DNA of 64,000 nucleotides from an uncultured delta proteobacterium. Lineage in GTDB: Bacteria > Desulfobacterota > Syntrophobacteria > BM002. Below, piece after piece: positions 19,575-63,152 of this stretch. Location of the stretch: positions 64,001-128,000 of the forward strand of contig CAVQGX010000018.1 of assembly GCA_963712115.1 (NCBI GenBank), written 5' to 3'. A program made the translations under genes and the position numbers. The notes beneath the pieces are model-generated. The model worked only from the letters and a program-made list of their open reading frames with translations. It was not told the DNA's origin and searched no databases. Position 1 is the first letter of the stretch. Every line of letters begins with the position of its first letter.

Positions 19575-19608
19575 CTAGCCCGGATTATTCATGAATTATC
19601 CGGGCTAG
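19575..19608. repeat. Collapsed MITE copy (TIRs only)
   Basis: CTAGCCCGGATTATTCATGAATTATCCGGGCTAG palindrome with the same ends as 20501-20697. Confidence 0.75.
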
Positions 19609-46061: not shown

Positions 46062-46293
46062 AAAGGCAGCTGGCAGCGGACAGCCTGCAGCAGGCAGCGA
46101 TAGGACAGGGGACAGAAGTCGGAAGTCAGAGGTCGGAGGTCGGAAGACAGAGGACAGATTTTTCTGATGGGTGCAGCTTTCCCCGCCCGCCTCGCCTGAG
46201 CGCGCCTCAGGCGGACGATGGCTGGCAGGCAGCCGCTATCATGAAAGACAAAGCTGGCAGCTGAAGGCTGATAGCTGAAAGCTCAAAAAACAA

Positions 46294-47397
46294 ATGACCG
46301 ATTACCGCGACATATTGGACAGCATAGACCGAGGTATTGTCACCCTAGATCTTCAGGGTAAGATTACCTCCTGTAACCGAGCCCTGGAAGAAATACTGGA
46401 AGTGGAGGCAAAGACGATTGTCGGTCATTCTCTGGAAGAGGCCTTTAGAAGGGAAGATCCTTTTTACCAGTTGTTGCAAGAATCTATTCAAGAAGAACCA
46501 CTTCTCCAGGACAGGGACCTGGCTTATACCAGCAAAAAAGGCAGGATCAAACCGCTGCGGGTTACAGCCTTTCCCCTCAAGAAGAAAACAGGAGAAAGGG
46601 TAGGGGGAATTTTGCTGGTAAAAGACATGACCGAAATTCGCAAGTTGGAAGAGAGAGTCCAGCGGGCCTCAAGGCTTGCAGCCTTGGGTCAACTGACCCA
46701 GCGACTTGTCCATGAAATTCGCAACCCACTGAGCGCTATGGATATCAATCTCCAGCTCCTACAGGAACGTCTGGGGTCCCGCAGCGAGGATCCTGAGATT
46801 GGCAGGTATTTGGAGATTATAAGTACGGAAACTAGGAGGCTCAATGAAGTACTGCGTAACGCCCAGGTTTTCTCCAAGCCAGAATCGCCGGATCTGGAGA
46901 CAGTTGACCTTCACCAGATAATTGACCAGGTGTTATTCCTCATAAAGGAAGAAGCGTTTCGCAAAAAAATTGAGATCTCCGAGAGCTTGCGGGCCAAGCA
47001 TAATATGGTCAAGGCTGACCCTGATCAGATGAAGCAGGTTTTCCTCAACCTTTTCAAGAACAGCATCGAGGCGATGAGCGAGGGTGGTAAATTCGAGGTG
47101 CTTTCAAGAAATGATGTCCAGGGCAAAATCATTGGAGTAGAACTGGTGGATACGGGGAGCGGCATCCCCATGGCCAACCTGCAGCGCGTCTTTGACCCGT
47201 ACTTTACAACCAAGAAAAAAGGCACCGGTCTAGGGCTCAGTATTGTCCACAATATTATTGCCCAGCATGGCGGAACCATTGATGTAACCAGCTGGCTGGG
47301 CGAGGGGACGATTTTTAGCATAATACTGCCCCTTGCGTCAGGTGAGAAAGAAAACAATGGAGATGCAAAGACCAAGAATCCTGATCGTAGACGATGA
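46294..47397 (+). CDS. Cytoplasmic PAS histidine kinase
   Basis: PAS, HEIRNPL, NLFKNS, DTGSG, GTGLGL; no TM segment seen. Confidence 0.93.
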   Translation: MTDYRDILDSIDRGIVTLDLQGKITSCNRALEEILEVEAKTIVGHSLEEAFRREDPFYQLLQESIQEEPLLQDRDLAYTSKKGRIKPLRVTAFPLKKKTGERVGGILLVKDMTEIRKLEERVQRASRLAALGQLTQRLVHEIRNPLSAMDINLQLLQERLGSRSEDPEIGRYLEIISTETRRLNEVLRNAQVFSKPESPDLETVDLHQIIDQVLFLIKEEAFRKKIEISESLRAKHNMVKADPDQMKQVFLNLFKNSIEAMSEGGKFEVLSRNDVQGKIIGVELVDTGSGIPMANLQRVFDPYFTTKKKGTGLGLSIVHNIIAQHGGTIDVTSWLGEGTIFSIILPLASGEKENNGDAKTKNPDRRR

Positions 47398-48715
47398 GCC
47401 CAACATACGCCAAGGTCTTGCAGAGGCCCTCGACGATCAGGGCTATGAGATTGAACAGGCCGCGAGCGGTGAGGCCGCCTTGGAAATTATCAGGTTGAAG
47501 CCCTTTGACCTCGTGCTGATTGATCTGGTCATGGAGGAGATGGACGGCATAGAGGTCTTGCGGGAGATCAATAAGGAATGGCCTCAGACTGAGGTGGTGA
47601 TCATCACTGCCCACGGTACCATTGAAACGGCGGTTAAGGCTCTCAAGGAGGGTGCATACGATTATCTTACTAAGCCGATTAATGTGAAACGGTTCCGCTC
47701 CTATATACACAACATCCTGCGAGCCCAAGAGTTACAGGAGGAAAATAGGCGGCTAAGAGAACAACTTCGTACTGAGCAAGACTACAGCCAGATCATCGGC
47801 CGAAGTGAAAAGCTTCTTACCATGCTGGAGATGATAGACCAACTGGCGCCAACTGATGTCACCATTCTTATCGAAGGGGAGAGCGGCACTGGTAAAGAGC
47901 TCGTGGCCCATGCCATCCACCAGAAGAGCGGGAGAGGGCAAAAGCCTTTCATCTCGGTTAACTGTGGCGCCTTGCCCAGAGAACTTATCGGTAGTGAACT
48001 CTTTGGCCACGAGAAAGGCGCTTTTACCGGAGCGTCGCAACAGAAACAAGGGAGATTCGAACTGGCTGACCGTGGTACACTTTTTTTGGATGAAATAGCT
48101 GAAATGAACCTGGAAGTCCAGGTGACATTATTGAGGATCTTAGAAGAAGGCCGATTTCGTCGGGTCGGAGGCACCCGCGAAGTCAAGGTGAATGTAAGGG
48201 TGATTGCCGCTACCAACAAGAGTCTCAAAGAGCAGGTCAAAGGAGGTAGATTCAGAGAAGATCTCTTCTATCGGTTGAACGTAGTGCGCATGAGTCTTCC
48301 ACCCTTGCGTGAGAGACAAGAGGATATTGAACCCCTGGCGCAGCACTTCTTGGACACTTTCTCAGCCAAGTACCACAAGTCCAATCTCAAGTTTGCCTCA
48401 GAGTTAAGCGAAAGACTGGCCCACTATCAATGGCCGGGAAATATCCGGGAGTTGAAGAACTGCATCGAGCGGGCCGTAATTCTGACACGCGAACCGGTAA
48501 TTGGGCTGGATCTGCTTCCCGAAAGGCTACAGCGAGAATCTGACCTGCCGACAAGGGCAGGAGTTTCTGTGGGCCTGTCCCTGGCTGAGATGGAGAGGGA
48601 AATGATTAGCCAGACCTTGGAGCACACAGGAGGCCACCGGAAACGCACAGCCGAGATTCTGGGAATAAGCGAAAGGGATCTGTATTACAAACTTAAGAAA
48701 TATCAGCTCAAATAG
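47357..48715 (+). CDS. Sigma54-dependent NtrC-family response regulator
   Basis: REC, GESGTGKE, GAFTGA, LFLDEI, WPGNIREL, C-terminal HTH. Confidence 0.95.
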   Translation: MEMQRPRILIVDDEPNIRQGLAEALDDQGYEIEQAASGEAALEIIRLKPFDLVLIDLVMEEMDGIEVLREINKEWPQTEVVIITAHGTIETAVKALKEGAYDYLTKPINVKRFRSYIHNILRAQELQEENRRLREQLRTEQDYSQIIGRSEKLLTMLEMIDQLAPTDVTILIEGESGTGKELVAHAIHQKSGRGQKPFISVNCGALPRELIGSELFGHEKGAFTGASQQKQGRFELADRGTLFLDEIAEMNLEVQVTLLRILEEGRFRRVGGTREVKVNVRVIAATNKSLKEQVKGGRFREDLFYRLNVVRMSLPPLRERQEDIEPLAQHFLDTFSAKYHKSNLKFASELSERLAHYQWPGNIRELKNCIERAVILTREPVIGLDLLPERLQRESDLPTRAGVSVGLSLAEMEREMISQTLEHTGGHRKRTAEILGISERDLYYKLKKYQLK

Positions 48716-48910
48716 TAATTAAATTGAGGGATTAAGGGATTAGAGTATTAAGAAATTAAGATAAGAATTTTGGTCGGCAATCTAGGAAATATTCATTTTT
48801 TTAATTCCTACATTTAGACATTTTAGCTCACTTTAGACAATTTAGGCATTTAAGATACGTAGGGTGGGCACTGCCCAGCGGATTCTTCAAAGCCACAAAG
48901 GGTGATTCTT

Positions 48911-49128
48911 CTGCAAAGTTTGCATAAGCCGAAAGATGCTGATATAACAGTATAAATAAAACCATTACCCCGATCTTCTCAAGCTGACAGAGTGTAAAAT
49001 CTGCAAAAGTTGCAGATTATTATTTTTTTGTCTGTCTTCTCTATGCATAAGCTAGGCTTTTAAGTAATTGAAATTGTTAAATTAAGTCTCCAGTATAAAA
49101 TAATGTCTTCCTTGGCATCGTCCTTGCT
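48911..49128 (+). promoter_or_regulatory. Sigma54 promoter with UAS and IHF-like site
   Basis: TGCA-N5-TGCA at 48912-48924 and within AATCTGCAAAAGTTGCAGATT at 48998-49018; TAAGTAATTGAAA at 49061-49073; TGGCATCGTCCTTGCT at 49113-49128. Confidence 0.8.
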
Positions 49129-49180
49129 ACAGTGAACTGTGGACTATTTAGGGCAATTTCTGTACTGGAAGGAGAAGATT

Positions 49181-49717
49181 ATGCAGCTTGGACAATTCCT
49201 GGACAAGAAACACGTGATTCTGGACATTCAGAACCTAGAGGGGCTTGATTGTCTGGAGGAGATCCTTGAGCGAGTTGCCACGGAGGGCTACTTGCGCAAC
49301 AAGATGAAAGCTCTCGACGAGTTGGTTGAACGAGAGCAACTAGCCACCACTGCTATCGGAGGCGGTATGGCCATTCCTCATGTGTTCACCGACGAAGCCC
49401 GACGCCCTCTCATGATCATGGCAAGATCGGTGGAAGGGGTGGCCTTCGAGTCGTTGGATGGCAAACCTGTAAATATTATCTTCGTGGCTATGGCTCCGCG
49501 GAAGGACAAGGAACTATTCATTAATATTCTCTACCATCTGGTTCGTTTCCTGAAAGTCAAAGAGAACTTCCAAGACATTATGGAAGCGAAGGACATCGAT
49601 GCTGTGCTGGAGGTCATTGCCCGGGCAAAGGACAACCTGTTGTCTGAGAAACTGAAGCGATTGGTCAAGGATGAGGTCTATCCTTACCGTGTACCCGGAA
49701 CTGGTATTTCAGGTTAA
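49181..49717 (+). CDS. PTS EIIA (Ntr/Fru-type) domain protein
   Basis: EREQLATTAIGGGMAIPH, FESLDGKPV; SD AAGGAG before the ATG at 49181. Confidence 0.88.
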   Translation: MQLGQFLDKKHVILDIQNLEGLDCLEEILERVATEGYLRNKMKALDELVEREQLATTAIGGGMAIPHVFTDEARRPLMIMARSVEGVAFESLDGKPVNIIFVAMAPRKDKELFINILYHLVRFLKVKENFQDIMEAKDIDAVLEVIARAKDNLLSEKLKRLVKDEVYPYRVPGTGISG

Positions 49718-49758
49718 AACTGAGCTACGAGATCTGCTAGTTAGAAGAGGATCGACTG

Positions 49759-51540
49759 TTGATGAAGCCTTCGGCCAAAGATGAAATCGTCCGCTCTCTT
49801 AGAAATCAGTTGCTCGACTTCTTTCGTCGTTACAAGCTGAGCGATCAAACCTTTCTGATCATTGTCGCGGTGATAGTAGGGTTTTTGGGCGGCCTTGGAA
49901 GCATCTTTTTTGAGAAGCTTATCGAATTAGGCCAACATTTCTTTTTTGAGATTGTTCCCCACATAGTTGGAAACCCCAAATGGCTCATAATTCTGATTCC
50001 CGCCTTCGGAGCGGTATTTCTCGCTCCCCTCATCTACTTTTTTCCGGTTGAAGCCAAAAGTGATGGCGTTCCGGCAACCATGGAAGCTGTAGCTCTAAAG
50101 GGCGGCATCATTAAGGTGCGTACCTTCTGCACCAGGATGCTCGCCTCTGCCATTACCCTCGGGTCGGGCGGCTCAGCAGGTAAGGAAGGCCCCATCATTC
50201 AGATCGGCGCATCGATAGGCTCCGCAGTTGGCCAGTTCTTCAAAGTTTCCGGAGAGAGGATGAGGGTGATGGTGGGCTGCGGTGCCGCGGCTGGCCTTGC
50301 CGCCATATTCAACGCACCCATTGCCGGAGTGCTTTTTGCGCTAGAGGTGGTGCTCGGAGAATTCAGCGTGCATAGCTTCAGCCCCATTGTCATCTCATCG
50401 GTGGTGGCAACTGCTGTCAGCCGGGCTTGGCTGGTAGAAGGTGCTGCCCTGAAACTCCCACCCTACCAGCTGTTCAGCTACTGGGAGATTGGTTTCTATG
50501 CGCTCCTCGGCATCGCTGCCGGTGTAGTCTCTGTGTGCTTTACCAAGGCCTTGCATAAGGTTGAAGAACTGTTTCATCGTCATGCTCCGGTCAAGAGCCA
50601 TTGGCAACCAATACTGGGCGGCTTGGTAGTGGGAATGATCGGTTTCTTTTTTCCTCATATTCTCGGTTGTTCATATGCACCTATCACCGAGGCTATTCAG
50701 GGTAATTTTCTGTGGAACACCTTGCTGGCCTTGCTCGTACTCAAAATAATTGCTACCGCTTTTACTCTTGGTTCCGGAGGCTCTGGCGGCATCCTCTACC
50801 CATGCCTTTTCATGGGTGCTACGCTCGGAGGTATTTTGGGTTACGCATTTAATCTTCTGGCACCCGGAATCGCCCCCTCAGCAGGTGGTTATGCCCTGGT
50901 TGGCATGGGAGCCGTGCTAGGAGCCGCGGTCCAAGCACCCATGGCCGCCATCATGATGGGCTTCGAATTAACTGGAAGTTATACCGTTATCCTCCCACTA
51001 ATGACTGCCTGCGTTTTGGCCACAGTGGTTCACCGCAGAATTATGCGTCACTCAATCTACACGCAAGCTCTGGTGGATCGTGGCATCGACATCTCGGCCG
51101 CCCGGGAGATGGGGGTGCTTACCATTCTTACCGTGGCTGATGTGATGAGTCGCGAGGTGCCGAAGATTCCCAGTAACCTGCCTTATAACGAGGTGGTGCG
51201 TCTTTGCCTCACAGGGCAGGGCAATTATCTCTACACCACCGACGAGGAGGACAACCTGGAAGGAGTCATCTCATTTCAGGACATAAAAGAATTCATCTAC
51301 GATGATCAACTCAACGGGCTGGTTTTTGCCGGGGATCTGGCCAATCGCGATGTGGTGTACGTTACCCCGGACGAGACTCTGGCTTCTTCCCTGAACAAGT
51401 TCAGTTACATTGATATGGAGGAGCTCCCAGTGGTGGGTGAAGATGACGGTTTCCGTCGGCTACTGGGAATCATCACCCGAAGCGAGCTGATGAAGATTTA
51501 CCGAAAAGAAATGCTAAAACGCGTTATGATTGAATCTTAG
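49759..51540 (+). CDS. CLC chloride channel/antiporter with CBS domains (2)
   Basis: SDGVPA, GKEGP, GGILYPCL, CBS pair. Confidence 0.93.
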   Translation: MMKPSAKDEIVRSLRNQLLDFFRRYKLSDQTFLIIVAVIVGFLGGLGSIFFEKLIELGQHFFFEIVPHIVGNPKWLIILIPAFGAVFLAPLIYFFPVEAKSDGVPATMEAVALKGGIIKVRTFCTRMLASAITLGSGGSAGKEGPIIQIGASIGSAVGQFFKVSGERMRVMVGCGAAAGLAAIFNAPIAGVLFALEVVLGEFSVHSFSPIVISSVVATAVSRAWLVEGAALKLPPYQLFSYWEIGFYALLGIAAGVVSVCFTKALHKVEELFHRHAPVKSHWQPILGGLVVGMIGFFFPHILGCSYAPITEAIQGNFLWNTLLALLVLKIIATAFTLGSGGSGGILYPCLFMGATLGGILGYAFNLLAPGIAPSAGGYALVGMGAVLGAAVQAPMAAIMMGFELTGSYTVILPLMTACVLATVVHRRIMRHSIYTQALVDRGIDISAAREMGVLTILTVADVMSREVPKIPSNLPYNEVVRLCLTGQGNYLYTTDEEDNLEGVISFQDIKEFIYDDQLNGLVFAGDLANRDVVYVTPDETLASSLNKFSYIDMEELPVVGEDDGFRRLLGIITRSELMKIYRKEMLKRVMIES

Positions 51541-51577
51541 ACGCAATACTAAATCCCACCATCCCTAGCTTAACCCA

Positions 51578-51655
51578 AAATTCACCCATTGCTGGTTTGA
51601 CCACATATGGGTAGTTTTACCCAGTTTTGGTCAAGGCATGAAATGGGTAAAAATT
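51578..51655. promoter_or_regulatory. Nested imperfect inverted repeat
   Basis: ACCCATT..TTGACCA..TGGGTA-GTTT-TACCCA..TGGTCAA..AATGGGT. Confidence 0.5.
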
Positions 51656-51981
51656 TTTGTTTACTACACCTCCGGAAAAGGTAGTCTCCTTTTGCATCCA
51701 TTCTTTTTCCTTGCATCCATTGCGCTAATTATATAGATTAACAAGAAATACTCCTTTTCAGGCGCGCGCATGATGTTGTATTCCCCGGAGATGCCAGTGC
51801 AGAGATAAGTTTGTCTTGCAGCGAGAGTTACCGTTCGCAATTCATCTTCGCGTACAGTTCAGCCAGTTGTTGGCTGTACAGATGGAAAACTGGTACTCCG
51901 AAGGCGCAATACTTTCCCTTAATCAACCTTGGATTTAAGCAAAAATTCTTGGAATAAACCCGCAAGCGCAGTGGAGAAAAC

Positions 51982-53034
51982 ATGGAGTGGGAAAGAATTA
52001 TCTTGATGGTGCTCGGCATTATCGTACTGTGCTCCTTTTTCCCCTTTTCAGTTATTTCCTTCCATAAGTACAGATTGCCCAAGAAGCGCCGCGAGTATGA
52101 ACGCATACGAAGGATTTTGGGCAAGGACAAAGATACCGGCGAGGAAGAAACATTACAGGAGCTCGTTCAAGAGGAGTACAAAGGCAGAGATTACATCCTG
52201 CCGGTATGTTTTGTTACGTTGTTTTGCGCTCTCGGGTTCTGGGTTCTTTTCTCGGACATACCACCCATAATTTTGACTGGAATTTCAGCCGGCGAGTTCG
52301 GCGATACGAGTTCAGGCGCGTTGCCCTATACCCACCTTAGTCTGGTGGCCATGGGTATGGCAATTCTCGGCAGCTATGTCTGGTCAATCCAGTATATCGC
52401 CAGGCGACTTATCAATCTGGACCTATCGCCCGGGGCATATTACAGCATGGGGACGCGCATTATTTTTGCTACATTTGTCTCCCTGACTTTTCACCACTTC
52501 ATTCAGTCAATGTATCCCGAGGCCAGGAAGGAAATGATTGAACTACTGCCTGTTATTGCATTTTTCACTGGCGTATTCCCCCAAAGTGCCACGCAATACA
52601 TCCAGGAAAAACTGCTTGTGTTCAAAAAGTTGGGAAAAGGGGCACATGAGCTGTCCTTGGAGATGATCGAGGGAATGAACTTGTTCCACAGAGTGCGACT
52701 GTCCGAGGTGGGCATCGACAATGCGCAAAATCTCGCTGAGGCTAATTTAGAGGAACTGATTCGGAAAACATCTTTTAACCCCCGACTGCTACTTGATTGG
52801 ATCGCCCAGGCCAAGCTGTATGTAATTGTCAAGGATCAGATCAGCAGCCTGCGGAGGGTGGGCGTCAGAACAGTCCTGGACTTTCAAGCAGCCGGGGCAG
52901 AAAACGGGCTTTCAACCCTGGCCCAGCTATCTGAGATGTCCCAAGAGCAGCTAGCTACCGTGCACCGGGTGATCAGCGAAGATCCAGACGTGGATACCAT
53001 AGCCAGAGCGCGGAAAAATCTGAGTGAAAGTTGA
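51982..53034 (+). CDS. Uncharacterised multi-pass membrane protein with C-terminal HhH-like (DUF4332-like) domain
   Basis: About 5 hydrophobic segments, then LEMIEGM..HRVRLSEVGIDNAQNLAEAN..LRRVGVRT. Confidence 0.7.
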   Translation: MEWERIILMVLGIIVLCSFFPFSVISFHKYRLPKKRREYERIRRILGKDKDTGEEETLQELVQEEYKGRDYILPVCFVTLFCALGFWVLFSDIPPIILTGISAGEFGDTSSGALPYTHLSLVAMGMAILGSYVWSIQYIARRLINLDLSPGAYYSMGTRIIFATFVSLTFHHFIQSMYPEARKEMIELLPVIAFFTGVFPQSATQYIQEKLLVFKKLGKGAHELSLEMIEGMNLFHRVRLSEVGIDNAQNLAEANLEELIRKTSFNPRLLLDWIAQAKLYVIVKDQISSLRRVGVRTVLDFQAAGAENGLSTLAQLSEMSQEQLATVHRVISEDPDVDTIARARKNLSES

Positions 53035-53068
53035 GGCTGGAGAACGCTCCGCGCTAAAGGAGGCAAAG

Positions 53069-54364
53069 ATGCTAATATTTATTAGCGATTTGCATTTCAT
53101 CGATGGTACAGCCGGTGAACATAATGTTCCAACTGATGCTTTCAAGATTTTTTTTGAGGATATTGCCGGAACGGTAGACTGGTTAAGCCGCGATGGTCGC
53201 AAGATAGAAGAGATTAAACTTATTTTTTTGGGTGATACGTTCGATTTATTGAGAACAGAGATGTGGTTTGACTATCCAGAGACTGAACGGCCTTGGGGAA
53301 ATAACGAGGCAAAAATCGAGATGAACGGCAACACCATATTTGACGCTATTATCAATAAAAATCAAGCTACCTTTGAATTGTTGAGCGGTCAATTGAAAGA
53401 TGAATTCGGTCTTCCGGTTGAGCCGGAGAGAATTTACCTTCCTGGTAACCACGACCGGTTATGCAACAAATATCAAAGCTTGCGTGACAAGGTGTGCAAA
53501 AGTATGGGTATACCTCTTCGCACAACACCCTTTGACCACCATTTTCAGGACGTGGAGTATGCTGTCTTTGCAAGGCATGGTCACGAATATGACAAATTCA
53601 ACTATGAAGGAAGCATTTCTTATGATTACCAAGATTACATGAGAGTACCAATTGGTGATCCAATTACCACCGAGCTGGTGGCAAAGCTGCCGTGGAAGAT
53701 CATGCAGAACAAAAAGATCAAAAAGTTGCCGAAAAAAGAGCGAGAAACATTAAGAAGAAATTTTCAAGACATAGAAAACGTAAGACCCTTCTCGGCTGTG
53801 ATTGAATGGCTCCTGTATCAGGTCAAAAAGAGCCTCAGATTGAAAGATGTCATTGAAGACTCGGTTGATGAAGTCATAGAAGAATTTGAGCGACTAAAAT
53901 TCGTAAACCAGTGGTACAAACATCATGACAAGTGGAACGATTTCTTGGATGAGGCAGACAGAATCCAATCTGTGTTGTTTCTCCTTAAGAAATTTAAGGT
54001 CTTCCCTATGGAAAAACTAATCCCTTACTTGGCGAGGGTGAACAGTCGTTTTGCCGAAGATGACAATCTCAAAGCAGCAGCAGATGAATATGCGCATCTG
54101 GATAATCAGATAAGATACATAGTATACGGGCACACCCACGAGGCCAAACAGGTGGCCATACGAGTCAGAGAAGACCCTAGAGAACCTAAAGAACAAGTGT
54201 ATCTGAACACTGGCACTTGGCGGACAAGATACTACAAGACTACGGAGGGTTTGGGTTTTATAGGTTGGAAAAATCTCTCCTACGTTTCTTTCTTCAAAAA
54301 AGAAGAAAGGCGGACAGATGTTCCCATTTTTGAAACGTGGACGGGAACTTTGAAGAAAGTATGA
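53069..54364 (+). CDS. Calcineurin-like metallophosphoesterase
   Basis: All five motifs: SDLH, GDTFD, PGNHD, HGH, GHTH; SD AAGGAGG before the ATG at 53069. Confidence 0.88.
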   Translation: MLIFISDLHFIDGTAGEHNVPTDAFKIFFEDIAGTVDWLSRDGRKIEEIKLIFLGDTFDLLRTEMWFDYPETERPWGNNEAKIEMNGNTIFDAIINKNQATFELLSGQLKDEFGLPVEPERIYLPGNHDRLCNKYQSLRDKVCKSMGIPLRTTPFDHHFQDVEYAVFARHGHEYDKFNYEGSISYDYQDYMRVPIGDPITTELVAKLPWKIMQNKKIKKLPKKERETLRRNFQDIENVRPFSAVIEWLLYQVKKSLRLKDVIEDSVDEVIEEFERLKFVNQWYKHHDKWNDFLDEADRIQSVLFLLKKFKVFPMEKLIPYLARVNSRFAEDDNLKAAADEYAHLDNQIRYIVYGHTHEAKQVAIRVREDPREPKEQVYLNTGTWRTRYYKTTEGLGFIGWKNLSYVSFFKKEERRTDVPIFETWTGTLKKV

Positions 54365-54444
54365 GCCCAAAATTACCACACCACAAGCAAACATTCGAAG
54401 AAAACTTGATGTAAAACAAGTTCTATGCAGGAGTGGAGGACTCT

Positions 54445-56232
54445 ATGCCTGTTACAGCAGACATAGTTATGTGGGGGATACGGGCGGGTATCAGGTTGGC
54501 CCAACAGGGCAGACAGGCCTATGTTGAAGTCACCATAAACCGGGAGTTGACCTTACCTTTGCCCAACTACAATCCGAAGGTGTCTGTGGGCACCGCCGAG
54601 GGATATTTCAGCGGTGCCGGAAAGAGGCGCCTTAAAGAGAATGCCAGGCTCAAGGAGCTCTACGAGATCTCCATGTCTGTGGACCGGCAGCTAAAGGAGA
54701 AAGAGAAAAAAGAGTTCATTGAACTCTATGTCGATTTTAAACGCGAGGAAGAGATCAAATCGGGTGTGATCACTGGTGACGAGCTAGGCCTCTCCACAGA
54801 GGCCCTCCTCTCCCTGGTAACCGTTCGCCAGTGGGCAGCCAAAAAGACTCCTTTCGCTTCCGTCTACCAAAGAATTATTGGCACACTCATCGACATCGGC
54901 GTAGATTATTTCGCCAACACCCCCGGGGCCATTGAGGAAAAATCATCATCAGGGAGGGTGATTAAGGGATTCCTGCAATCCATAGATGAGCTCAATTTTG
55001 CTGAAGAAAAAGTTGATCAACTGGCTAAGAACTTGTTCATTGCGACCTTAGAGACCATTGAGGAAAATCCAGACCTGCTGGGCGGGGACGAAAAGACCGA
55101 GCAACTGGTGGAGGCGGTTGCTAAGGGCTTGATCAGGGATGCTCGAAAACTCACTGAAGATCTGGCCAGCCGAGATCTTGCCAAGCAGGAAAGGATTCAC
55201 GACTGGGCAAATCTGGTTTTCCGAAGTCTGTTGAGCAATGCAGGACACATGGTGCTCGCCAATCCCAGCACCTACCTGTCCGTAGACGACACTGCGGCTC
55301 AAGCCTTAATTGCTGCCGTAGGAACATCTGTTCTCGACACTATTATCACGGAAGACTCTATAGATCTCTCTGGGCTCTTGAGCCGGGAGGGACTGGACGC
55401 AGTCATGAGCGCAGCCCTCTTCACCCTGGCCGAGAATCCCTCTATAATGGGTGTAGATCACCAGGGACTGAGGAAGCTCCTCTCTCAAATCGCCCAGGAT
55501 CTTGCCCAATCATCGCTCCTGCTGAACCCAGACATCATTCCTGAAATGATGCGACTGATTCTTGAAAGAACTGCAGCTCATGCTGATCTCCTCTGGCCAG
55601 ATGAATTCCGGCAACCCGACAAGCACCTGCTGATAACCGCCTCTCGAGAACTTCTCAACCAGCTGGCAAAACCTCCGGCCCCAGGGGATACTTGGAAACC
55701 GAATCTTACCAAGAGCCAGATTCTTGGCATAGTTGAAACAGTCTTGGATGAAGTAGTCCAAAATCCTGAATGGCTGGTGAAAGCATCTGAGAGTGAGAAT
55801 GTTATTTTGGCGGATGTGGTCGAATCTGTTATGGCGGTATTACGAAAAGTACCGGCTAACCGGCTGAGCGGTGAAACAGGTGTGGAGGTGCTGAAATCTG
55901 CAATCAAGGCGGTGGCCCTGAGAAAAGATTTTGTTGAGAAAATAACTGTGGATGGAGCTCAGCAACGAGCGATTTCGGCTGCCCTTGAGAGGTTGATAGA
56001 TGCGTGTCTAACAGATGGGGTAGATCCGCAAGCCCGATGGACTCTGGCCAGGGGTGAGGTATTCAGCCTGATTGCCGAAACCGCCCTAACCAAACTGGCA
56101 GAAACGGGGATATCGGAAACGAACCTCGGCACAGTGGAAAAGTTCATCCGGGAAACCGCCGAGGATCTCGCCTCGGGAAGACCCTGGGAGCTGCAGCGGT
56201 TGATTGAAAAGATCAACAGTTTAGCTGTTTGA
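54445..56232 (+). CDS. Large alpha-helical hypothetical protein
   Basis: ~595-aa Leu/Ala/Glu-rich ORF, SD GGAGG; no catalytic motif recognised. Confidence 0.75.
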   Translation: MPVTADIVMWGIRAGIRLAQQGRQAYVEVTINRELTLPLPNYNPKVSVGTAEGYFSGAGKRRLKENARLKELYEISMSVDRQLKEKEKKEFIELYVDFKREEEIKSGVITGDELGLSTEALLSLVTVRQWAAKKTPFASVYQRIIGTLIDIGVDYFANTPGAIEEKSSSGRVIKGFLQSIDELNFAEEKVDQLAKNLFIATLETIEENPDLLGGDEKTEQLVEAVAKGLIRDARKLTEDLASRDLAKQERIHDWANLVFRSLLSNAGHMVLANPSTYLSVDDTAAQALIAAVGTSVLDTIITEDSIDLSGLLSREGLDAVMSAALFTLAENPSIMGVDHQGLRKLLSQIAQDLAQSSLLLNPDIIPEMMRLILERTAAHADLLWPDEFRQPDKHLLITASRELLNQLAKPPAPGDTWKPNLTKSQILGIVETVLDEVVQNPEWLVKASESENVILADVVESVMAVLRKVPANRLSGETGVEVLKSAIKAVALRKDFVEKITVDGAQQRAISAALERLIDACLTDGVDPQARWTLARGEVFSLIAETALTKLAETGISETNLGTVEKFIRETAEDLASGRPWELQRLIEKINSLAV

Positions 56233-56255
56233 TCTTTTAAAAGGAGGCCAGGTCA

Positions 56256-57062
56256 ATGATTTTCTATTTGCCATTGAAGTCGAAGAGCAAGGTTTTTGTT
56301 CTCCTTTTGGTATGGATCGCCATAGCGGCGTGTGTATCTCACGTAAAGGAACTGCGGGAAGCTCAGAGTCAATTTAGCCAGGCAGCGTCCTTGGAAAATG
56401 AGCTCCAAATTGATATGGAAGCCGGCGATGCCATTGCCATGAGCACTATGGTAACGAGCTCCTACCGACAAACGGTGAAGATACTTTCGGATCTACTCGA
56501 TAGCAAAAGACAACCATTGCAGGAAGACGGCCTCCTCGGAACCGCCTATACCCTGAAGGCGTATGCTGAATGGAGACTGGGTGATTACGAAACGGCGGTT
56601 GCCACATCGTCAGCGGCTTTGGAGGCAAAACTGTTTCCCCGCGACCTGGCCTTGATCACGGCTCTCCGAGGTCTCATAAAGAATGATCAGGCGTACTATC
56701 ACATGCAAGAAAAGGACTACGCCTACAGGGATATCAAAATACTTCTCGAGGAAGCCCTGGAGGATATCACGAAGGGTCTGGCAACAGCCGGTAAAGAGGA
56801 GAATATTCGTATCTACCTCCTCTTATCTGAACTCATCGTTTTGAAAAACTGGACCGACCTTCGAGGTGAGCCGCGAAAGTTTGCCCGGGAGATTCCAACA
56901 AATTTTAGTAAACCGGCTGAAATTTCAGCTTGGTGCAGAAGTGCTCAACCGGTGTGGGCCATGTTCCAGGAGGAAGTGAAGAGGCTCAGGCCGGATGAGG
57001 CCCCGGCATTGATCCAAGACTGGAGCAGGAAACTCGCTGTGAAGGAGACATGTTCGAATTAG
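56256..57062 (+). CDS. Putative lipoprotein, TPR-like helical
   Basis: Lipobox-like IAAC after a hydrophobic stretch; AYTLKAYAEWRLGDYETA TPR-like segment. Confidence 0.7.
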   Translation: MIFYLPLKSKSKVFVLLLVWIAIAACVSHVKELREAQSQFSQAASLENELQIDMEAGDAIAMSTMVTSSYRQTVKILSDLLDSKRQPLQEDGLLGTAYTLKAYAEWRLGDYETAVATSSAALEAKLFPRDLALITALRGLIKNDQAYYHMQEKDYAYRDIKILLEEALEDITKGLATAGKEENIRIYLLLSELIVLKNWTDLRGEPRKFAREIPTNFSKPAEISAWCRSAQPVWAMFQEEVKRLRPDEAPALIQDWSRKLAVKETCSN

Positions 57063-57154
57063 AGGAAATTATAATTTGTGGCAGAAGAGACACGCGGCAA
57101 CTACTCTGTTCAGAACAGTAAAGCTCTTGGATAAACAAATAGGGGAGAAAAAAG

Positions 57155-58147
57155 ATGCCGAAAAAAGCCGATGCCGTCTTTGAAGGTGGTGGGGTGAAGG
57201 GTATCGGGCTGGTAGGAGCAGTAGCTGAAATTGAGAAGGCAGGGTACGTTTTTGAAAACCTGGCGGGAACGTCAGCCGGCGCCATTGTATCTTCACTTCT
57301 TGCAGTGGGTTACAGTGCAGGGGAAATTAAAAAAGAGCTTGAACAGCTCAACTACAACGACTTCAAAGACGAGGGCTTTTTGGATAAGCTTGGCTTCTTC
57401 GGCAAGAGCTTGAGCATTGGCTTTGAGTATGGGATCTACGAGGGGGAGATCTTTGAAAACTGGCTCGAGGGATTACTGGTGGCTAAAGGGAAGACCACCT
57501 TTGGGCAGATAAAGACGAAGTACAAGGAAGACAAGTATAAATACAAATTTCAGGCTATCGCAGCCGATATTACCGATAGGCGACTCCTTGTCCTTCCTAA
57601 CGATTTGAAGTTATTTGGCATTAATCCCGATGAATTCAGCATCTCCCGCGCGGTGAGGATGAGTATGAGCATTCCCTTTTTCTTTGAACCAGTGGAGTTT
57701 CGAGACCCCAGCGGCAGAAAACATTTCATTGTGGATGGTGGACTTTTGAGCAACTATCCAATTTGGCTCTTGGATGACGGCACAGGCGATCCGCCCTGGC
57801 CCACCTTCGGGTTCAAACTCATGGAACCGGACAAGAGAGAATTAAAGGAAGCCAAGAGAAATCCCATTAACAACCCTATAAGCTTTCTCAAGGCTATTGT
57901 GGGGACTATGTTAGACGCCCACGACAACTACCATATCTCTAAGTCAAAGGGCGACTTCGACAGGACAATTGGTATACCAACAATAGTAACGGTTAATGGT
58001 ACCGAGAAAGAAATAGGAACCACAGACTTCAACATAACTCAGGAAGAAAGCCAGGCGCTGTTTGAGAACGGGGTGAAAGCTGCCCAGCAATTTCTCAAGA
58101 AATGGGATTTTGAAAAGTGGAAGAAGAAATACAGGCGGAAGAAGTAA
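57155..58147 (+). CDS. Patatin-like phospholipase
   Basis: GGGVKG oxyanion loop, GTSAG nucleophile, SMSIPFFF, VDGG. Confidence 0.95.
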   Translation: MPKKADAVFEGGGVKGIGLVGAVAEIEKAGYVFENLAGTSAGAIVSSLLAVGYSAGEIKKELEQLNYNDFKDEGFLDKLGFFGKSLSIGFEYGIYEGEIFENWLEGLLVAKGKTTFGQIKTKYKEDKYKYKFQAIAADITDRRLLVLPNDLKLFGINPDEFSISRAVRMSMSIPFFFEPVEFRDPSGRKHFIVDGGLLSNYPIWLLDDGTGDPPWPTFGFKLMEPDKRELKEAKRNPINNPISFLKAIVGTMLDAHDNYHISKSKGDFDRTIGIPTIVTVNGTEKEIGTTDFNITQEESQALFENGVKAAQQFLKKWDFEKWKKKYRRKK

Positions 58148-58156
58148 AGACTAATG

Positions 58157-58211
58157 CTAGCCCGGATGTTTCATGGTCTCGCGACAGCAATTCATGAAAC
58201 ATCCGGGCTAA
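58157..58211. repeat. Internally deleted MITE copy
   Basis: CTAGCCCGGATGTTTCATGG...ATTCATGAAACATCCGGGCTAA. Confidence 0.75.
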
Positions 58212-58241
58212 ATCAGCTCAAAAATACGACCAATTGCTTCT

Positions 58242-58667
58242 TTAGCAGTTGTCAACGTAGTGGACACCGCGAAGATTAGGAATTGTTTTGAGGCCAACTA
58301 TCGGTTTGCCGATCTTAAGGCCGTGGCCGATCTCTGACAGGGTGCCGGCGCCGCCAGACACTGCCACCAGGCCGTCGGCGGTGTGAGCTATGATAACATT
58401 TCGAGCCTGACCCATGTCCGTGGCGACTGGTATCTTGATGTATGGATTAGCACTATTGCATGAAGGCCCTGGTAATATGCCAACCGTGAGACCGCCAGCC
58501 ATGGATGCGCCTTTGGCGGCGGCTTCCATGACTCCACCCAAACCACCGCAAACTAGGATTGCACCTCTTTTGGCAATCTCTTCACCAACCTCCAGAGCAA
58601 GTTGATAAATGGAGCTCTCACACTGTCCAGCACCGATAACTGCAATAATTGGTGGAGACTGGCTCAT
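58242..58667 (-). CDS. TIGR00725-family (LOG/DprA-like Rossmann) protein
   Basis: CGGLGGVMEAAAKGA, TVGILP, ARNVII, GTLSEI. A probable 1-nt insertion near the 3' end truncates ...TAKEAIGRIFELI. Confidence 0.85.
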   Translation of the reverse strand: MSQSPPIIAVIGAGQCESSIYQLALEVGEEIAKRGAILVCGGLGGVMEAAAKGASMAGGLTVGILPGPSCNSANPYIKIPVATDMGQARNVIIAHTADGLVAVSGGAGTLSEIGHGLKIGKPIVGLKTIPNLRGVHYVDNC

Positions 58668-58673
58668 GAGAAC

Positions 58674-59315
58674 TTACTCCTTCCAGCCGTGCGTGCCCAG
58701 TAAATTGACAAAGCGGCAACCACCCAGATCAATTTTGGTAATTCCTTCCTTTACTCGGACAATTTTCATAAGCGCTTGAGTGTACCGATCTCCCACGGGG
58801 ACGACCAGCCTTCCCCCCATAGCCAGTTGGTCCACTAGAGGTTGCGGAACGTCCGGAGACCCTGCAGTTACCATGATTGCATCAAAAGGTGCTTCCTCCT
58901 TCAGGCCGAGAGTACCGTCCCCCACCTTAAGGACCACGTTGAAGTACCCTAGATCGTCCAGGATGCGCTGCGCCCTGGCTGATAGGGTGCGGATGCGTTC
59001 AATGGAATAGATTTTCTCAGCGAGTTCTGCTAGGATTGCCGTCTGGTAGCCAGAGCCCGTGCCGATTTCCAAGACCCTCTCTTGTCCCTGCAGTTCCAGG
59101 GCTTCCGTCATCAGTGCAACCATGTAGGGCTGGGAGATCGTTTGTTTCTCGCCAATGGGAAGGGGATGATCATTGTAGGCTTGGCTGACGAGAGCTTCTT
59201 CGACGAAACGGTGGCGGGGAACTTTTCGCATAGTGTCCAGAACGCGGGCATCTTTAATGCCACGGCTGATAAGCTGGCTTTCCACCATGCGGTTGCGAGC
59301 TGTGGCATACTCCAT
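58674..59315 (-). CDS. pcm: Protein-L-isoaspartate O-methyltransferase
   Basis: [38 protein letters not shown]. Confidence 0.96.
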
Positions 59316-59364
59316 CTAACCCTCCCCACGGGTCAAACTGCCCGTGGATTAAGGTAGATTAGCC

Positions 59365-59865
59365 ATGGACCATTTGTCAACGCAAAATCCCAGTAAAGTA
59401 AAGGAAGATAACACCCATTTTGGTTACAGTCTCCGACTGCTGCTCTTTATTCTGATGACCATGGTCATTTTCCTGGTTCACTGTACCAAGCCAATGACGC
59501 ACAAGGAGGTAATGGTAACCAATCGGCCGGAGAAGAAGGTCTTCAAGATGAAGCCTGATGTGGTCAGAGAGGCGGTAGAGAGGGCGCTGGAGAAGAAGAA
59601 GTTCATCCTAGCGGCAAAGCAAAGCAATGAACTGCACCTTGAAACAGAGTGGCTGGAAGACGAGGGTTACAGAAGCAGGGTAGTGGCGGACATCGAACCG
59701 CTGTCCCGGAGCAAAACCCAGCTTACCCTAATGGTGTATCTCGAACAAAAACTCGTATTCAAGGACGAATGGAAACCAATGGATGAAATAGGAGAGGACA
59801 CCTACAAGATTTTGATGGGTGACATCGAGATGGAGTGCTATCGTGTCCTTTACGACCGTACGTAA
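59365..59865 (+). CDS. Putative lipoprotein
   Basis: Hydrophobic stretch ending LVHC; LETEW motif reminiscent of BamC-like domains. Confidence 0.6.
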   Translation: MDHLSTQNPSKVKEDNTHFGYSLRLLLFILMTMVIFLVHCTKPMTHKEVMVTNRPEKKVFKMKPDVVREAVERALEKKKFILAAKQSNELHLETEWLEDEGYRSRVVADIEPLSRSKTQLTLMVYLEQKLVFKDEWKPMDEIGEDTYKILMGDIEMECYRVLYDRT

Positions 59866-60667
59866 AGCCATTATACCAGCCGCTGGCTTGGGCACGAGAG
59901 TGAGGGCAATTACTGGAGACTTGCCAAAAGAGCTTCTGACCGTGGCGGCGAAGCCCCTAATCGTCCATGCCATAGAGGGTTTGGCTACTAGCGGTGTTCG
60001 CCAGATAGCTGTGGTCATCAGCCCAGCCAAAGAGAGTATCCGCCAATTTCTCCTGGGAAACCCACCCGAATTCCTTGCCCCCCTGTTGGATGCTCATTTG
60101 AGAGTTCTCTTTAAAGCCTGCAAGTTCAGCTTTTTTGTTCAGCCCGAACCAAGCGGCTTGGCAGACGCGGTAAGTCTTTGCCGGGAATTTATAGGCAACG
60201 AGCCCTTTGCTTTAATTATGCCGGATAACATTTTGCTCGATGGCCTTCCGGTGGTGAGCCAAATGATACCCTTTTTTTCAAGCGAAGGTCGAGACATGTT
60301 AGGGGCCATTGGCTTAAGAATGGAAGAAGCCTCTCGTTTTGGCAATGTGGGCATCCTTGAGACAGAAATTATTCCTGGTAGGAGCCCAAGATTTAGGAAG
60401 GTCTCTGGCTTCTCTGACAAGACGGGCGACCCTCTGAGTATCCCTCCCGGACAAAAGCTGCTCAAGAATTTCGGTGGCAGCATATTCCTGCCGCACTTTT
60501 TTGATTACATCGAACAATGTCGCCCTAATGCTCAAAATGAACTGGACGATGTTCCAGTTATCCAGGCCATCCTCAGGGATCAGGGATTAGATGTAGTAGT
60601 ACTTGAGGGAAATGGCTTTGACGTGGGAAATCCTGCGGGATATTGGGCAGCAAATCTCCATATCTAA
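59819..60667 (+). CDS. Sugar-phosphate nucleotidyltransferase (GalU-like)
   Basis: KAIIPAAGLGTR, LPKELL, QPEPSGLADAV, DVGNPAGY. Start uncertain. Confidence 0.88.
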   Translation: MTSRWSAIVSFTTVRKAIIPAAGLGTRVRAITGDLPKELLTVAAKPLIVHAIEGLATSGVRQIAVVISPAKESIRQFLLGNPPEFLAPLLDAHLRVLFKACKFSFFVQPEPSGLADAVSLCREFIGNEPFALIMPDNILLDGLPVVSQMIPFFSSEGRDMLGAIGLRMEEASRFGNVGILETEIIPGRSPRFRKVSGFSDKTGDPLSIPPGQKLLKNFGGSIFLPHFFDYIEQCRPNAQNELDDVPVIQAILRDQGLDVVVLEGNGFDVGNPAGYWAANLHI

Positions 60668-60918
60668 AGCAAACAGCCGCAGCGACTAGGATGGTAGGGG
60701 CAAAGCCCAGCATGGCGCAAAGCGCATGGCGTCAATTTGTCAATTAGTTAATTAGTAAAATTGTTGGAATCGTTCAAGTCTTTGACATCGCCGCTGAAAG
60801 CCACTCTCACAGTAGAATCTCTCCTCTTTACTCTGAGTTCTGCCCCCCTTGCGGTCGAATTACTCTGCCCTTTGCAGCAAGCTAACGGCTGAGCGCTGGT
60901 AGCTGAAAACTTTCCTGC

Positions 60919-62961
60919 CTAAAGCATATTGACCAATTCTGCATATTCGAGCCAAAGGGATTCCAGAGGATGGAGTCTTCTGTTGGTCTCTTTTTCGACC
61001 TCGGAAACTCCTAGACGCTTCAGGGCTAGTTGGCGGAGTTTTAATCGATAATAGGTGCCGAAAAACATTGGCCCTGCCGAGGTGACCAAAAAGGGAGAGA
61101 ACCTCTCGGGCTGTTCCACTCCCCCAGAGAAGGGTGCCACCTGGGTGCCTTGATAGAGAAATGGGAGGTTGTCTTTCCAGGAGGAGTCGTACTGCTCCGG
61201 GCCGAGGAATTCTGCTGGTCTTTGAGCTAGCAAAAAATCGAAAGCTATCGGATTGTGCACTTGCGTCAAAGGGCGCAGGGCAAAAAGGTTGATCTTAGAA
61301 GAGTTGTCAAGGATTGTCTCAAGATTAGATGGGGAGGAATCTCTTTCACTGGCAAAAACACCCAGTCCTAAAAAAGGATAGCTTTCACGCCAACGGTCGA
61401 TTGCCAGCTGCAGACTTGGCTGTGATGCTCTGGAAGTATCGTCGATAAACAAAAACAAAGGGGTGTGGTCGAATCGATGGATCAGCTTCACCAGGTAAGG
61501 TAGATAGTCGAGGTCCTGGTCGCGTTTGGATGAAATGAAGAACTTGTCAACAATGGGCAAAACTAAGTACTCCAACCGGTTGCTGCTGAGCCACTCCTGG
61601 CCGGTCCTGATGAGAGCCCAAAGCAAGCTCAATTTTTCAGAGTGATTTTTCTTTTTCTTGCGGTACCAGGAAAGTGTCTGGTCCACTTGGTGGCGAGCGG
61701 CTGTGGGCGGGACAAAAGTAATGGCCAATCCTTTTCCCTCAGTCAACCTTTGATGGTCGCCAGACTGGAGTATTTCCTTCGCTTGGCCCATGAGTTGCTC
61801 CCATTCGCCGAGAGGTAACCCGTTCAAAAGGAGGCTAACCCTCAAGGTCCAAAGTCTGTGGAGAATTTGCGGCCTAACCAACCTTTTTCCCCAGAGGCCA
61901 AAGAGGTCTTCAGCTTGTTCTCTTAAGGAATGACCGAGGGGGAATGGAGAAGACCTTTCTCTGTCGGAAAGCTCTACAATAAAATCCCTCCTGAGAGCCT
62001 GGACCCTTTGAGAAAATTGGACTGCAGCCTCGGCAGAAATCTGATGGGTGAAGGAGGGAGCGCCCCAGCCGGAGGCAGCTCCTAGACTGGCGTTGTGCAG
62101 GGTGATCACCACCCGTTTAGACCTCCGGCTCACCTCCATAGCCAAACGAAAGACCTCAGAGAGCTCCTTTACCTGATAGGAGATCAATTTCTCCAAAAAA
62201 GCGGTTTCCACCTGACTGCGCTGACCCCAAGAGTGGATACGGAGATTTTTATCCAATACCCTTTTCTCACTGGAATAGAGGTTCACTCTTGAACAGGATG
62301 CAAGGTCTTCAACAGATGTCATCTTGGCCCAATGTCTGAGGGACCCCATGGGAGTGAGTCGGTTGCTTGCGGCAAGGGCCTCAGAGATTTCTCCGGGGGA
62401 AAGAGTCTCTTTTTCAAGAAAGCGCTTTCTCAAACCAGACTTAAGAGGGTAGGAAAGGCGCCGGACCAATAGGGACAAAAGAGATCTGCGTGAAGCACTG
62501 GGTAAAGGACCGGAGAGAAGGCTTGACTCCAAAGGCCAAGCAGATGAAGACCGCTTGAGCACGACCTCCAAAAGGGTGGCAAGGGGACGGCAGTCTTGAG
62601 GATTCTCCATACAAGAAATCAATTCCGCCACTGCCTGGCGCACTGAACTGTGCTCATACCATTTTAAAGGTAACCAGTCAGGCAGCCAGCGGAGCAGTCG
62701 GAGAAAATGGTTCAACTCATCTTCGACAGGAGGGCTGAAGATCAGTACCCTAGCTGCCTGGCGCACCTCCGGGCAGTTGTCAACCAAGCCCCTGGCAAGA
62801 CAAACGAGACCTTCTCGGCTTGATTGATTATTTGAAGAGAAAAGACGACGGGCACCATTGACAAGATGGGGAGCAGTGTTCTGCAGGACTCTCAAGAAAG
62901 GGCGAAGGGGCTCTGGATCATTAAATTTCCAGATTTCCATGGGAGTTATCTCCGCCAGCAA
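60919..62961 (-). CDS. Large hypothetical protein
   Basis: 680-aa ORF; no family recognised. Confidence 0.7.
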   Translation of the reverse strand: MLAEITPMEIWKFNDPEPLRPFLRVLQNTAPHLVNGARRLFSSNNQSSREGLVCLARGLVDNCPEVRQAARVLIFSPPVEDELNHFLRLLRWLPDWLPLKWYEHSSVRQAVAELISCMENPQDCRPLATLLEVVLKRSSSAWPLESSLLSGPLPSASRRSLLSLLVRRLSYPLKSGLRKRFLEKETLSPGEISEALAASNRLTPMGSLRHWAKMTSVEDLASCSRVNLYSSEKRVLDKNLRIHSWGQRSQVETAFLEKLISYQVKELSEVFRLAMEVSRRSKRVVITLHNASLGAASGWGAPSFTHQISAEAAVQFSQRVQALRRDFIVELSDRERSSPFPLGHSLREQAEDLFGLWGKRLVRPQILHRLWTLRVSLLLNGLPLGEWEQLMGQAKEILQSGDHQRLTEGKGLAITFVPPTAARHQVDQTLSWYRKKKKNHSEKLSLLWALIRTGQEWLSSNRLEYLVLPIVDKFFISSKRDQDLDYLPYLVKLIHRFDHTPLFLFIDDTSRASQPSLQLAIDRWRESYPFLGLGVFASERDSSPSNLETILDNSSKINLFALRPLTQVHNPIAFDFLLAQRPAEFLGPEQYDSSWKDNLPFLYQGTQVAPFSGGVEQPERFSPFLVTSAGPMFFGTYYRLKLRQLALKRLGVSEVEKETNRRLHPLESLWLEYAELVNML

Positions 62962-63152
62962 CTTTACATAACTGGAAAGAAGATTATATTAGAAGGATAT
63001 TGGCTGATTGGCAAGGGGAACAGCGAAGGAGGAACTTTGAGGATAGCTAAGTGTCTAACTGCTGATAAGAAGCTAGGTCTAAAGTTTACCAGTCGCTAGG
63101 ACGAAAGAAAACTTTCAGAGGGGATAATTTTATAGTTTGGAAAGGAGAGGAT

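Follow-up and report, generated by a model that had tools for sequence, protein, structure and literature searches.

Five genes, here called A to E, follow one another at positions 51982-58147 of a 64,000-nucleotide stretch of DNA from an uncultured delta proteobacterium of the Syntrophobacteria lineage BM002 (contig CAVQGX010000018.1), and this whole stretch is referred to as the window. Judged by the gene neighbourhoods of their relatives, C, an all-alpha protein, and D, a predicted lipoprotein, are the only constant pair, and the phosphoesterase B and the patatin-like E are optional neighbours. We read the locus as a lineage-specific combination of modules that can be separated, at a chromosomal site with variable content. 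An initial annotation of the window had taken the five genes as one unit and as the candidate for a new system, serving either conflict or lipid remodelling. Both functions are still the leading readings, but a fixed five-gene system is not what we found: A-B-C-D-E occur together in no other locus searched. What looked like a one-off cluster has become a core of two genes whose alternative partners can be listed; among these are two further families, the helical family F with three transmembrane (TM) segments and the C25-like (clan-CD-like) peptidase P. Related genomes are numbered G0xx, with G000 being the window's own genome (94% complete), and related loci or contigs Lxxx.

All stop-to-stop frames of 65 related loci were scanned with hidden Markov models (HMMs) made from the window proteins and their neighbours. 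Directly after C we found D in 31 of 35 evaluable loci (the exceptions being L044, L064, L059 and L061), a count that holds five near-duplicate pairs and corresponds to about 26 of 30 distinct loci, and from stop to start the two genes are a few bases apart or overlap. Directly upstream of C lies a B-type phosphoesterase in 5 of 40 loci, F in 5 and neither of them in 30. The position directly after D is taken by the C25-like peptidase in four of 18 loci, by an E-type patatin in three (L010, L020 and L024), by F in one and by none of these in ten; a patatin follows D also in the short contig L022, which lies beyond the 18 evaluable loci. Tight, same-strand B-C-D, C-D-E and F-C-D adjacencies recur with C identities of 43-60%, and the closest contig, L020 from a metagenome, carries B-C-D-E together at 86-89% identity, with an alpha-amylase fragment upstream where A would be. 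A divergent phosphoesterase-F-C-D-E set is present in another family of the same class. Further partners are a DUF900 lipase (weak Tle3-domain match) and PhoD around C-D in L008 as well as Amidase_3 and a divergent phosphoesterase near C-D in L009, L010 and L024. The PhoD-like gene after D in L008 (11178-12717, a Candidatus Scalindua metagenome-assembled genome (MAG)) is split into two overlapping open reading frames (ORFs). Members of the F family are helical, have three hydrophobic segments and end in a conserved LPLGW...SFGAPFW.D; no PADLOC, Pfam or NCBIfam model matches them, and the top score in the Atlas search (0.94) was to unnamed clusters.

Protein D carries a signal peptide and a lipobox (...IAIAA/C26); all 14 aligned homologues share Cys26, and the cysteine recurs across the loci. 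D is predicted to be exported and lipid-modified as a lipoprotein. It also has an LREAQ..FN.AA..EN motif and, in the clade of the window, two further conserved cysteines, a common trait of exported proteins. Its AlphaFold2 (AF2) model (pLDDT 92.7, pTM 0.84) is a tetratricopeptide repeat (TPR)-like superhelix, for which VIA gave YfgM (Z 13.5, rmsd 3.3, 165 aligned residues), SprE (13.2) and PilF (11.9) within a range of Z 10.7-13.5 for TPR chains. BamD and other structure matches lie at E-values above 0.001, the Pfam TPR matches are sub-threshold and no NCBIfam or PADLOC family covers D, which on its model resembles periplasmic TPR scaffolds no more than any TPR protein would. The model of the C-D complex scored 0.89 (0.88, 0.89 and 0.90 in three runs) versus 0.00 for the best control, a level reached by 116 of 157 solved complexes and by 2 of 215 mismatched pairs, these rates being approximate as our own alignments were used. 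At least 94% of the contacts are common to all three runs and the partner pLDDT is at least 88. In the modelled interface, residues 27-63 and 80-138 of C, including the invariant L41-P42-L43-P44, face a conserved groove of D with D144, Y187 and N198, and 14 of the 26 invariant positions of D, among them 11 of its 13 invariant polar or tyrosine residues, take part. The LPLP loop of C is disordered in the monomer model and lies against the groove of D in the complex model. Together this supports, but does not prove, that D binds C. The LPLPN(Y/F)N loop would then sit in the concave groove of D, and the pair offers a concrete interface for testing. An immunity role of the lipoprotein against the phospholipase fits poorly: D accompanies C with or without a lipase, and C is its predicted binding partner.

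Protein C falls into no family of Pfam, NCBIfam or PADLOC. When 1.84 billion representatives were searched with a profile, 794 clusters matched at an E-value ≤ 0.001 (352 at ≤ 1e-30); a word-indexed search gave 41 clusters. The best named relative of C is from a Ca. Scalindua MAG, which had suggested an anammox-like genome, but HZS_alpha was not found and this label was dropped. C, D and F are sizeable 'dark' families. Among 41 related genomes, highly similar C proteins were limited to the window's genome and all three genomes of one genus from another family of the class, with weak relatives in three further genomes. A close C is present in none of the 17 other genomes of the same genus. The AF2 model is all-alpha (pLDDT 71, pTM 0.48). 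A Foldseek search, as proposed for this 599-aa protein in the initial annotation, returned generic helical repeats only: nothing in the PDB at an E-value ≤ 0.001, and TAL effectors and designed repeats at TM-scores of 0.1-0.2. With VIA the best hits were designed helical repeats (Z 8.6, rmsd 5.1, 212 aligned), which is in the range of any helical repeat, and the Atlas search gave a top score of 0.81 to a 'hypothetical' entry, so that the modelled fold of C is best described as a generic solenoid. The invariant LPLPN(Y/F)N loop lies within the N-terminal ~140 aa. Invariant residues of C are Pro, Gly, Trp, Phe and Leu, with none of the polar residues looking catalytic. The C-terminal module of ~290 aa, without conserved polar or catalytic residues, has the look of a binding platform; in long members of the family, which reach 1637 aa, a single N-terminal region precedes up to five copies of it in tandem. 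No informative Pfam domain was found in 30 long C-family proteins, and no fusion to D, F, B, E or P domains among 188 C-family representatives. Three of the long forms (L059 8013-11357, L061 3555-6893 and L057 3379-6453; 1026-1120 aa with three tandem modules) come without D and have a GNAT acetyltransferase directly upstream and a class III cyclase-like gene nearby. C itself is signal-less, its reading frame staying open for only six codons before the start, and neither a signal peptide nor a hydrophobic segment was found in any of B, C, E, the amidases, the DUF900 lipase and the peptidase.

The catalytic motifs of both enzymes had been called intact, and they are complete in B, as in eight aligned relatives, and in E. 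B matches Pfam Metallophos (PF00149) marginally, with 22.6 bits versus a cut-off of 21.5, and its five metallophosphoesterase motifs (SDLH, GD, GNHD, H172 and GHTH) are invariant in these relatives; the metal-motif residues D7/H9, D56, N127/H128, H172 and H355/H357 point to membership in this superfamily. LpxH carries a lipid-binding cap between motifs IV and V. B resembles LpxH and PlcP in its metallophosphoesterase core with the five motifs and, like LpxH, has an insert at this place, a helical one of ~180 aa. It differs in length (431 aa versus 248 aa for the LpxH chain in 5b49) and fails the LpxH membership tests: in NCBIfam no curated LpxH model matches and PdeM alone is listed (E-value 0.0017), a profile search of the PDB gave nothing significant, with LpxH 5b49 at an E-value of 0.9, and in PADLOC there is a match at chance level only (0.014). 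The family of B holds 2019 clusters and is auto-labelled 'LpxH' by the JGI pipeline; the nearest named relatives of B are from Nitrospirota and Thermodesulfobacteriota MAGs. As B is present in only six of the 17 other genomes of the genus, it is no essential lipid A enzyme. On plasmids one B match was found, in an unannotated record, around which the C, D, E, F and P profiles found nothing. In G012 (L126 6838-8099) B is split into two frames and likely a pseudogene.

E matches Pfam Patatin (PF01734) with 109.7 bits versus a cut-off of 27.7 (2.6e-31) and has GGGVKG at 11, GTSAG at 38 (Ser40) and DGG at 194 (Asp194), so that the catalytic dyad is intact. Its best PDB match is PlpD (3.4e-10), and it has no sensor domain. 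Phospholipase effector models of PADLOC (CBASS-lipase type, CBASS being the cyclic-oligonucleotide-based antiphage signalling system) match weakly at 4.7e-10, and in NCBIfam E reaches 27.6 versus a cut-off of 200 for CBASS_lipase and 36 versus 400 for the anti-phage phospholipase. Because no cyclase is present and the scores are far below the cut-offs, E is, as judged by its motifs, a bona fide patatin and not the CapV of CBASS. It was found in nine of the 17 other genomes of the genus.

Within the genus the flanks of the locus are syntenic, with an NtrC-like regulator, a PTS IIA-like protein and a ClC channel on one side and a LOG-like protein and PCMT on the other. The interval from the ClC channel gene to LOG/PCMT holds at least six different gene sets (Table 1). 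The 263- and 264-aa proteins of G005 and G014 are 91% identical and domain-less and their adjoining patatins only 30% identical to each other, suggesting that the partner protein was kept while the lipase was exchanged. In G008 and G013 the set includes a signal-less Amidase_3, a helical 102-aa protein, the 3-TM protein F and a patatin that is 88% identical to E, and the amidase is 53% identical to the one beside phosphoesterase-F-C-D-E in the other family of the class. The slot that C-D fills in the window is occupied in G002, G006, G007 and G016 by a 141-aa protein with an N-terminal hydrophobic helix, which matches Csx23 of PADLOC at 5e-10 and 2e-9 over nearly the full length. Its helical 108/117-aa partner has a hydrophobic tail.

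Table 1: Features of the locus in the window (positions of the window) and gene contents of the corresponding site in genomes of the genus (positions of the named contig).
Feature	Position	Strand	Description
Upstream intergenic region	51541-51981		441 nt, 5' of A; partly conserved in G002 and G007
A	51982-53034	+	350-aa membrane protein with C-terminal double HhH/DUF4332-like region
B	53069-54364 (53024 if GTG)	+	431-aa metallophosphoesterase (446 aa from GTG)
C	54433-56232	+	599-aa all-alpha solenoid, domain-less in Pfam
D	56256-57062	+	268-aa TPR-like lipoprotein (predicted)
E	57155-58147	+	330-aa patatin-like phospholipase
MITE copy	58158-58210		53 nt, collapsed; between the convergent genes E and LOG
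Site in G000 (window)			A-B-C-D-E
Site in G002	L080 11005-11778 (141 aa and 108 aa)		A-B-141 aa-108 aa, without E
Site in G007	L081 7608-8383 (141 aa and 117 aa)		A-B-141 aa-117 aa-E
Site in G006 and G016			141-aa and 108-aa cassette as in G002, then E
Site in G008 and G013	L110 5968-11680 (G008); L108 1178-6345 (G013)		Lipoprotein-phosphoesterase (306-311 aa)-Amidase_3-lipoprotein (224 aa)-102 aa-F-E
Site in G005	L112 1120-2938		263-aa protein and E-like patatin
Site in G014	L111 1320-3180 (264-aa protein and patatin)		HhH-GPD protein, then 264-aa protein beside a patatin 30% identical to E
Site in G010			32-aa remnant of the D C-terminus upstream of E
Site in G004			PLD at the site; elsewhere, on another contig, amidase and 485-aa lipoprotein, then B directly followed by E
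Site in G012			Split B and E, 5 kb apart

The 3' border is formed by a miniature inverted-repeat transposable element (MITE), as had been noted, with a perfect 18-nt inverted repeat (58158-58175 and 58193-58210). The genome contains its arm 142 times (70 forward and 72 reverse, with at most one mismatch) versus 0 for the reversed control; the arms are often paired ~166 nt apart, the copy after E being a collapsed one. Members of the family lie also at 19576-19607, 20502-20696 and 41105-41122 of the window. Contigs of relatives are without the MITE insertion (joint 58155 to 58207) and show many loose ends, and in G002 homology resumes at 58209. Such a repeat-flanked, rearrangement-prone site could simply have joined A, B, C-D and E by recombination, with no joint function at all. 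Each part is found without the others, one genus holds at least six contents at the same site, the border carries this abundant MITE, and A, B and the patatins belong to large independent families. We nevertheless consider this unlikely, as B-C-D, C-D-E and F-C-D recur tightly spaced at the C identities given above, F immediately precedes C-like genes in G011 and G018 even though these are very distant, and phosphoesterase, amidase, F and patatin recur together in two families of the class.

What we tentatively favour, although at somewhat less than an even chance, is a conflict-type module in which an envelope-anchored C-D scaffold is combined with swappable signal-less hydrolases. C-D would act as a scaffold or regulator that holds or gates the hydrolases encoded alongside, here B and E, and once triggered the ensemble would attack membrane and envelope lipids as a device for defence, abortive-infection-like response or antagonism. 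All steps beyond the predicted C-D binding, from a role as scaffold through the connection with the enzymes to a function in conflict, are inferred. This reading is ranked first because a constant C-D, a frequent membrane protein (F or A), changing hydrolases, a patchy distribution and the exchange of cassettes at a fixed site make up a modular logic typical of conflict systems. If true, a scaffold with swappable hydrolases would be an architecture for defence or antagonism without the usual NTPase or cyclase sensor.

Several observations weigh against such a conflict function. A sensor NTPase, a cyclase and a nuclease are all missing from the cluster, and none of B, C, D and F matches a PADLOC model. 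In a rough test without a genome-wide background, the expected enrichment in defence islands did not appear: C-D has 130 neighbours in the 16 loci used, of which 11 match PADLOC (1e-6); these are mostly generic (ABC ATPases, methyltransferases, a RecD-like helicase, LuxR, class III cyclases) and at most four are plausible defence genes. Relatives of C are present neither in viral contigs of IMG/VR nor in plasmids of PLSDB. As each persists without the other, neither C-D nor B/E needs its counterpart: B-E occurs without C-D in G004, and C-D without them elsewhere. In GC-rich loci, with C identities of 35-39%, C-D lies amid ABC permeases, purD, dehydrogenases and LexA/SRAP, and these divergent loci come without a recurrent enzyme. 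E is 77-79% identical to homologues in a different family of the class, C there only 45-49%, and this unusual conservation of E would also suit a housekeeping enzyme. Cas10 (TIGR02577, TIGR02578) was not found in G000, G002, G006, G007 and G016, and because of this the Csx23-like gene is an orphan. A conflict in topology adds to this, with D having a canonical lipoprotein signal and its predicted partner C being signal-less. Finally, the patatin, LpxH-like, lipase, PLD, PhoD and amidase classes all fit a turnover of the envelope.

The last point leads to a close rival, somewhat unlikely in our view, in which the locus serves envelope or lipid maintenance: B, acting on lipid-linked pyrophosphates or phosphodiesters, and E, acting on acyl esters, would remodel or recycle the membrane lipids under stress or nutrient limitation, with C-D(-F) being a co-regulated structural or regulatory complex of the envelope. 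Every recurrent enzyme (patatin, LpxH-like, DUF900 lipase, PhoD, Amidase_3 and PLD) acts on envelope components, L010 has a CDP-alcohol phosphatidyltransferase 1.3 kb away from E, and D has a fold like the periplasmic TPR scaffolds YfgM, BamD and PilF. The presence of C-D amid housekeeping genes in many lineages, the strong conservation of E and the lack of defence enrichment in the rough test would fit as well. A metallophosphoesterase of this kind, PlcP, exists; Wei and co-workers (2018, cited in PMC9239053) are said to have described it as a lipid-remodelling phospholipase C. Maintenance is less easily brought together with a very patchy distribution (C in 3 of 301 genomes sampled from the phylum, besides the counts for B and E within the genus), with a site content that differs between species of one genus, and with B being nearly twice as long as LpxH without a curated LpxH match, and the signal-less clan-CD-like peptidase in the patatin slot of 4 of 18 loci is hard to reconcile with it. 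If true, a new complex of the envelope would be connected with a patatin and an LpxH-like enzyme.

The topology of C and D could also be explained by a lysis-type release or export similar to type 10 secretion, in which a membrane protein (F or A), a signal-less amidase and lipoproteins let the signal-less hydrolases and C pass through the inner membrane, and C then docks on the periplasmic D. It is the sole reading that accounts for an exported D next to a signal-less C, and in relatives the same patatin has a signal-less Amidase_3, the 3-TM protein F and one or two lipoproteins as neighbours. Holin-endolysin-spanin cassettes releasing signal-less proteins are documented in PMC4259817 and PMC10847048. 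We regard it as improbable for the window, in which none of the five proteins has a peptidoglycan hydrolase domain and Amidase_3 is present only in related loci; neither an amidase of this type nor F was found in G000 with the queries used, a weak negative in a genome of the stated completeness. Moreover, F and A have no similarity to known holins in Pfam, D with its 268 aa and TPR-like fold is unlike small o-spanins, and most C-D loci are without a peptidoglycan hydrolase. At a similarly low probability, F-C-D could be an undescribed, widespread envelope apparatus in which an unrecognised route takes the signal-less C, perhaps with hydrolases attached to its repeatable helical modules, through the inner membrane, and C then docks in the groove of D through its invariant LPLPN loop. 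If true, it would represent a novel means of delivering lipases, phosphoesterases, peptidases and amidases to the envelope or of displaying them there.

As a whole, the locus is akin to hydrolase effectors with a non-enzymatic partner module, and a comparison with known systems is in line with the earlier statements that none of the five proteins is a cyclase, an NTPase or a secretion protein and that PADLOC would give no full system: only E matches, to generic phospholipase effector models, and A, C and D match nothing. No description of the gene combination was found in the literature, supplements being outside the search, in agreement with its having been unrecognised before. With CapV of CBASS, PlpD, VipD and ExoU, E shares the oxyanion GGG, the GxSxG Ser40 and the DGG Asp194; it differs from them in having neither a CD-NTase or other cyclase nearby nor a secretion or targeting domain, and in being only 330 aa long. 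The periplasmic TPR lipoprotein scaffolds include NlpI. D is like YfgM, BamD, PilF/PilW, TadD and SprE in being a TPR-like helical lipoprotein that is predicted to hold a loop of its partner in a groove, and unlike them in having no sequence family match at threshold and a partner, C, without export signal. The proximity of lipase- and amidase-type enzymes to lipoprotein genes recalls the Tle-Tli and Tae-Tai pairs of the type VI secretion system (T6SS), but the enzymes here lack PAAR, VgrG or MIX-type domains and D co-varies with C and not with the lipase. The T6SS sheath gene VipB (PF05943) was not found in G000, with a positive control in E. coli, and this argues against a Tle/Tli-type effector-immunity reading. 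Csx23 is described as a type III CRISPR membrane effector binding cyclic tetra-adenylate (cA4). The Csx23-like gene differs in lying outside the window, in relatives without a detected Cas10, and its product is dissimilar to D. The accessible part of PMC13069673 mentions a patatin only for a CBASS variant.

Protein A had been described as a membrane-HhH protein. Its hydrophobic segments could be confirmed, with TM-like segments at residues 6-24 and 72-90 and at least two strong hydrophobic segments, but the HhH part is matched weakly, with the HhH, DUF4332 and RAD51D_N matches in Pfam all being below cut-off. DUF4332 appeared in one unrelated paper of the literature searched. A was not found in any of the 65 related C loci. 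It is present in five of the 17 other genomes of the genus, all five without a close C, and adjoins B in G002, G007 and G016. Its own family is broad (172 clusters); plasmid homologues with 27-30% identity lie amid unrelated genes and distant homologues stand alone. According to these neighbourhoods A is a lineage-specific neighbour, a genus-level addition outside the conserved module.

All five ORFs are present on the + strand, closely spaced and co-oriented as initially annotated, with gaps of 34 nt between A and B (an 11-nt overlap if B starts at GTG), 68 between B and C, 23 between C and D and 92 between D and E. For B the ATG is more likely the start than the GTG because the relatives begin there. 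RNA-library contigs (Logan) from relatives, not from this strain, span the junction of A and B in two studies (X1 record 2, X4 record 20); none bridges B/C, C/D or D/E, and C-D is almost uncovered. Promoter and terminator scans were at chance level, with 5 promoter-like sites versus 8.4 expected and 10 terminator-like sites versus 7.4 expected. The symmetric element said to bound the locus upstream does exist as an inverted repeat at 51615-51652, but it is weak, being only 12 nt long with 92% matches. Heptamer arrays are indeed absent from the cluster, yet this is not cluster-specific, as Tandem Repeats Finder (TRF) gave none in the whole of 46288-64000 including the flanking core genes.

Many short period-7 tandem arrays occur in intergenic DNA of the window between 15661 and 46287, for example at 16886-17005, 29163-29236 and 46115-46287. 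Two long tandem repeats (12717-13438 and 39254-39775), with periods of 384 and 134-281 nt and 75-89% matches, are probably repeated protein domains. The window also holds two ClC-type channel paralogues (44313-46058 and 49759-51540) that are 38-39% identical and 3.7 kb apart, the second one, with CBS domains, flanking the variable site. On the minus strand at 60919-62961 lies an ORF of 680 aa without Pfam or PADLOC match, which is conserved with 72-76% identity and in synteny in G002 and G007.

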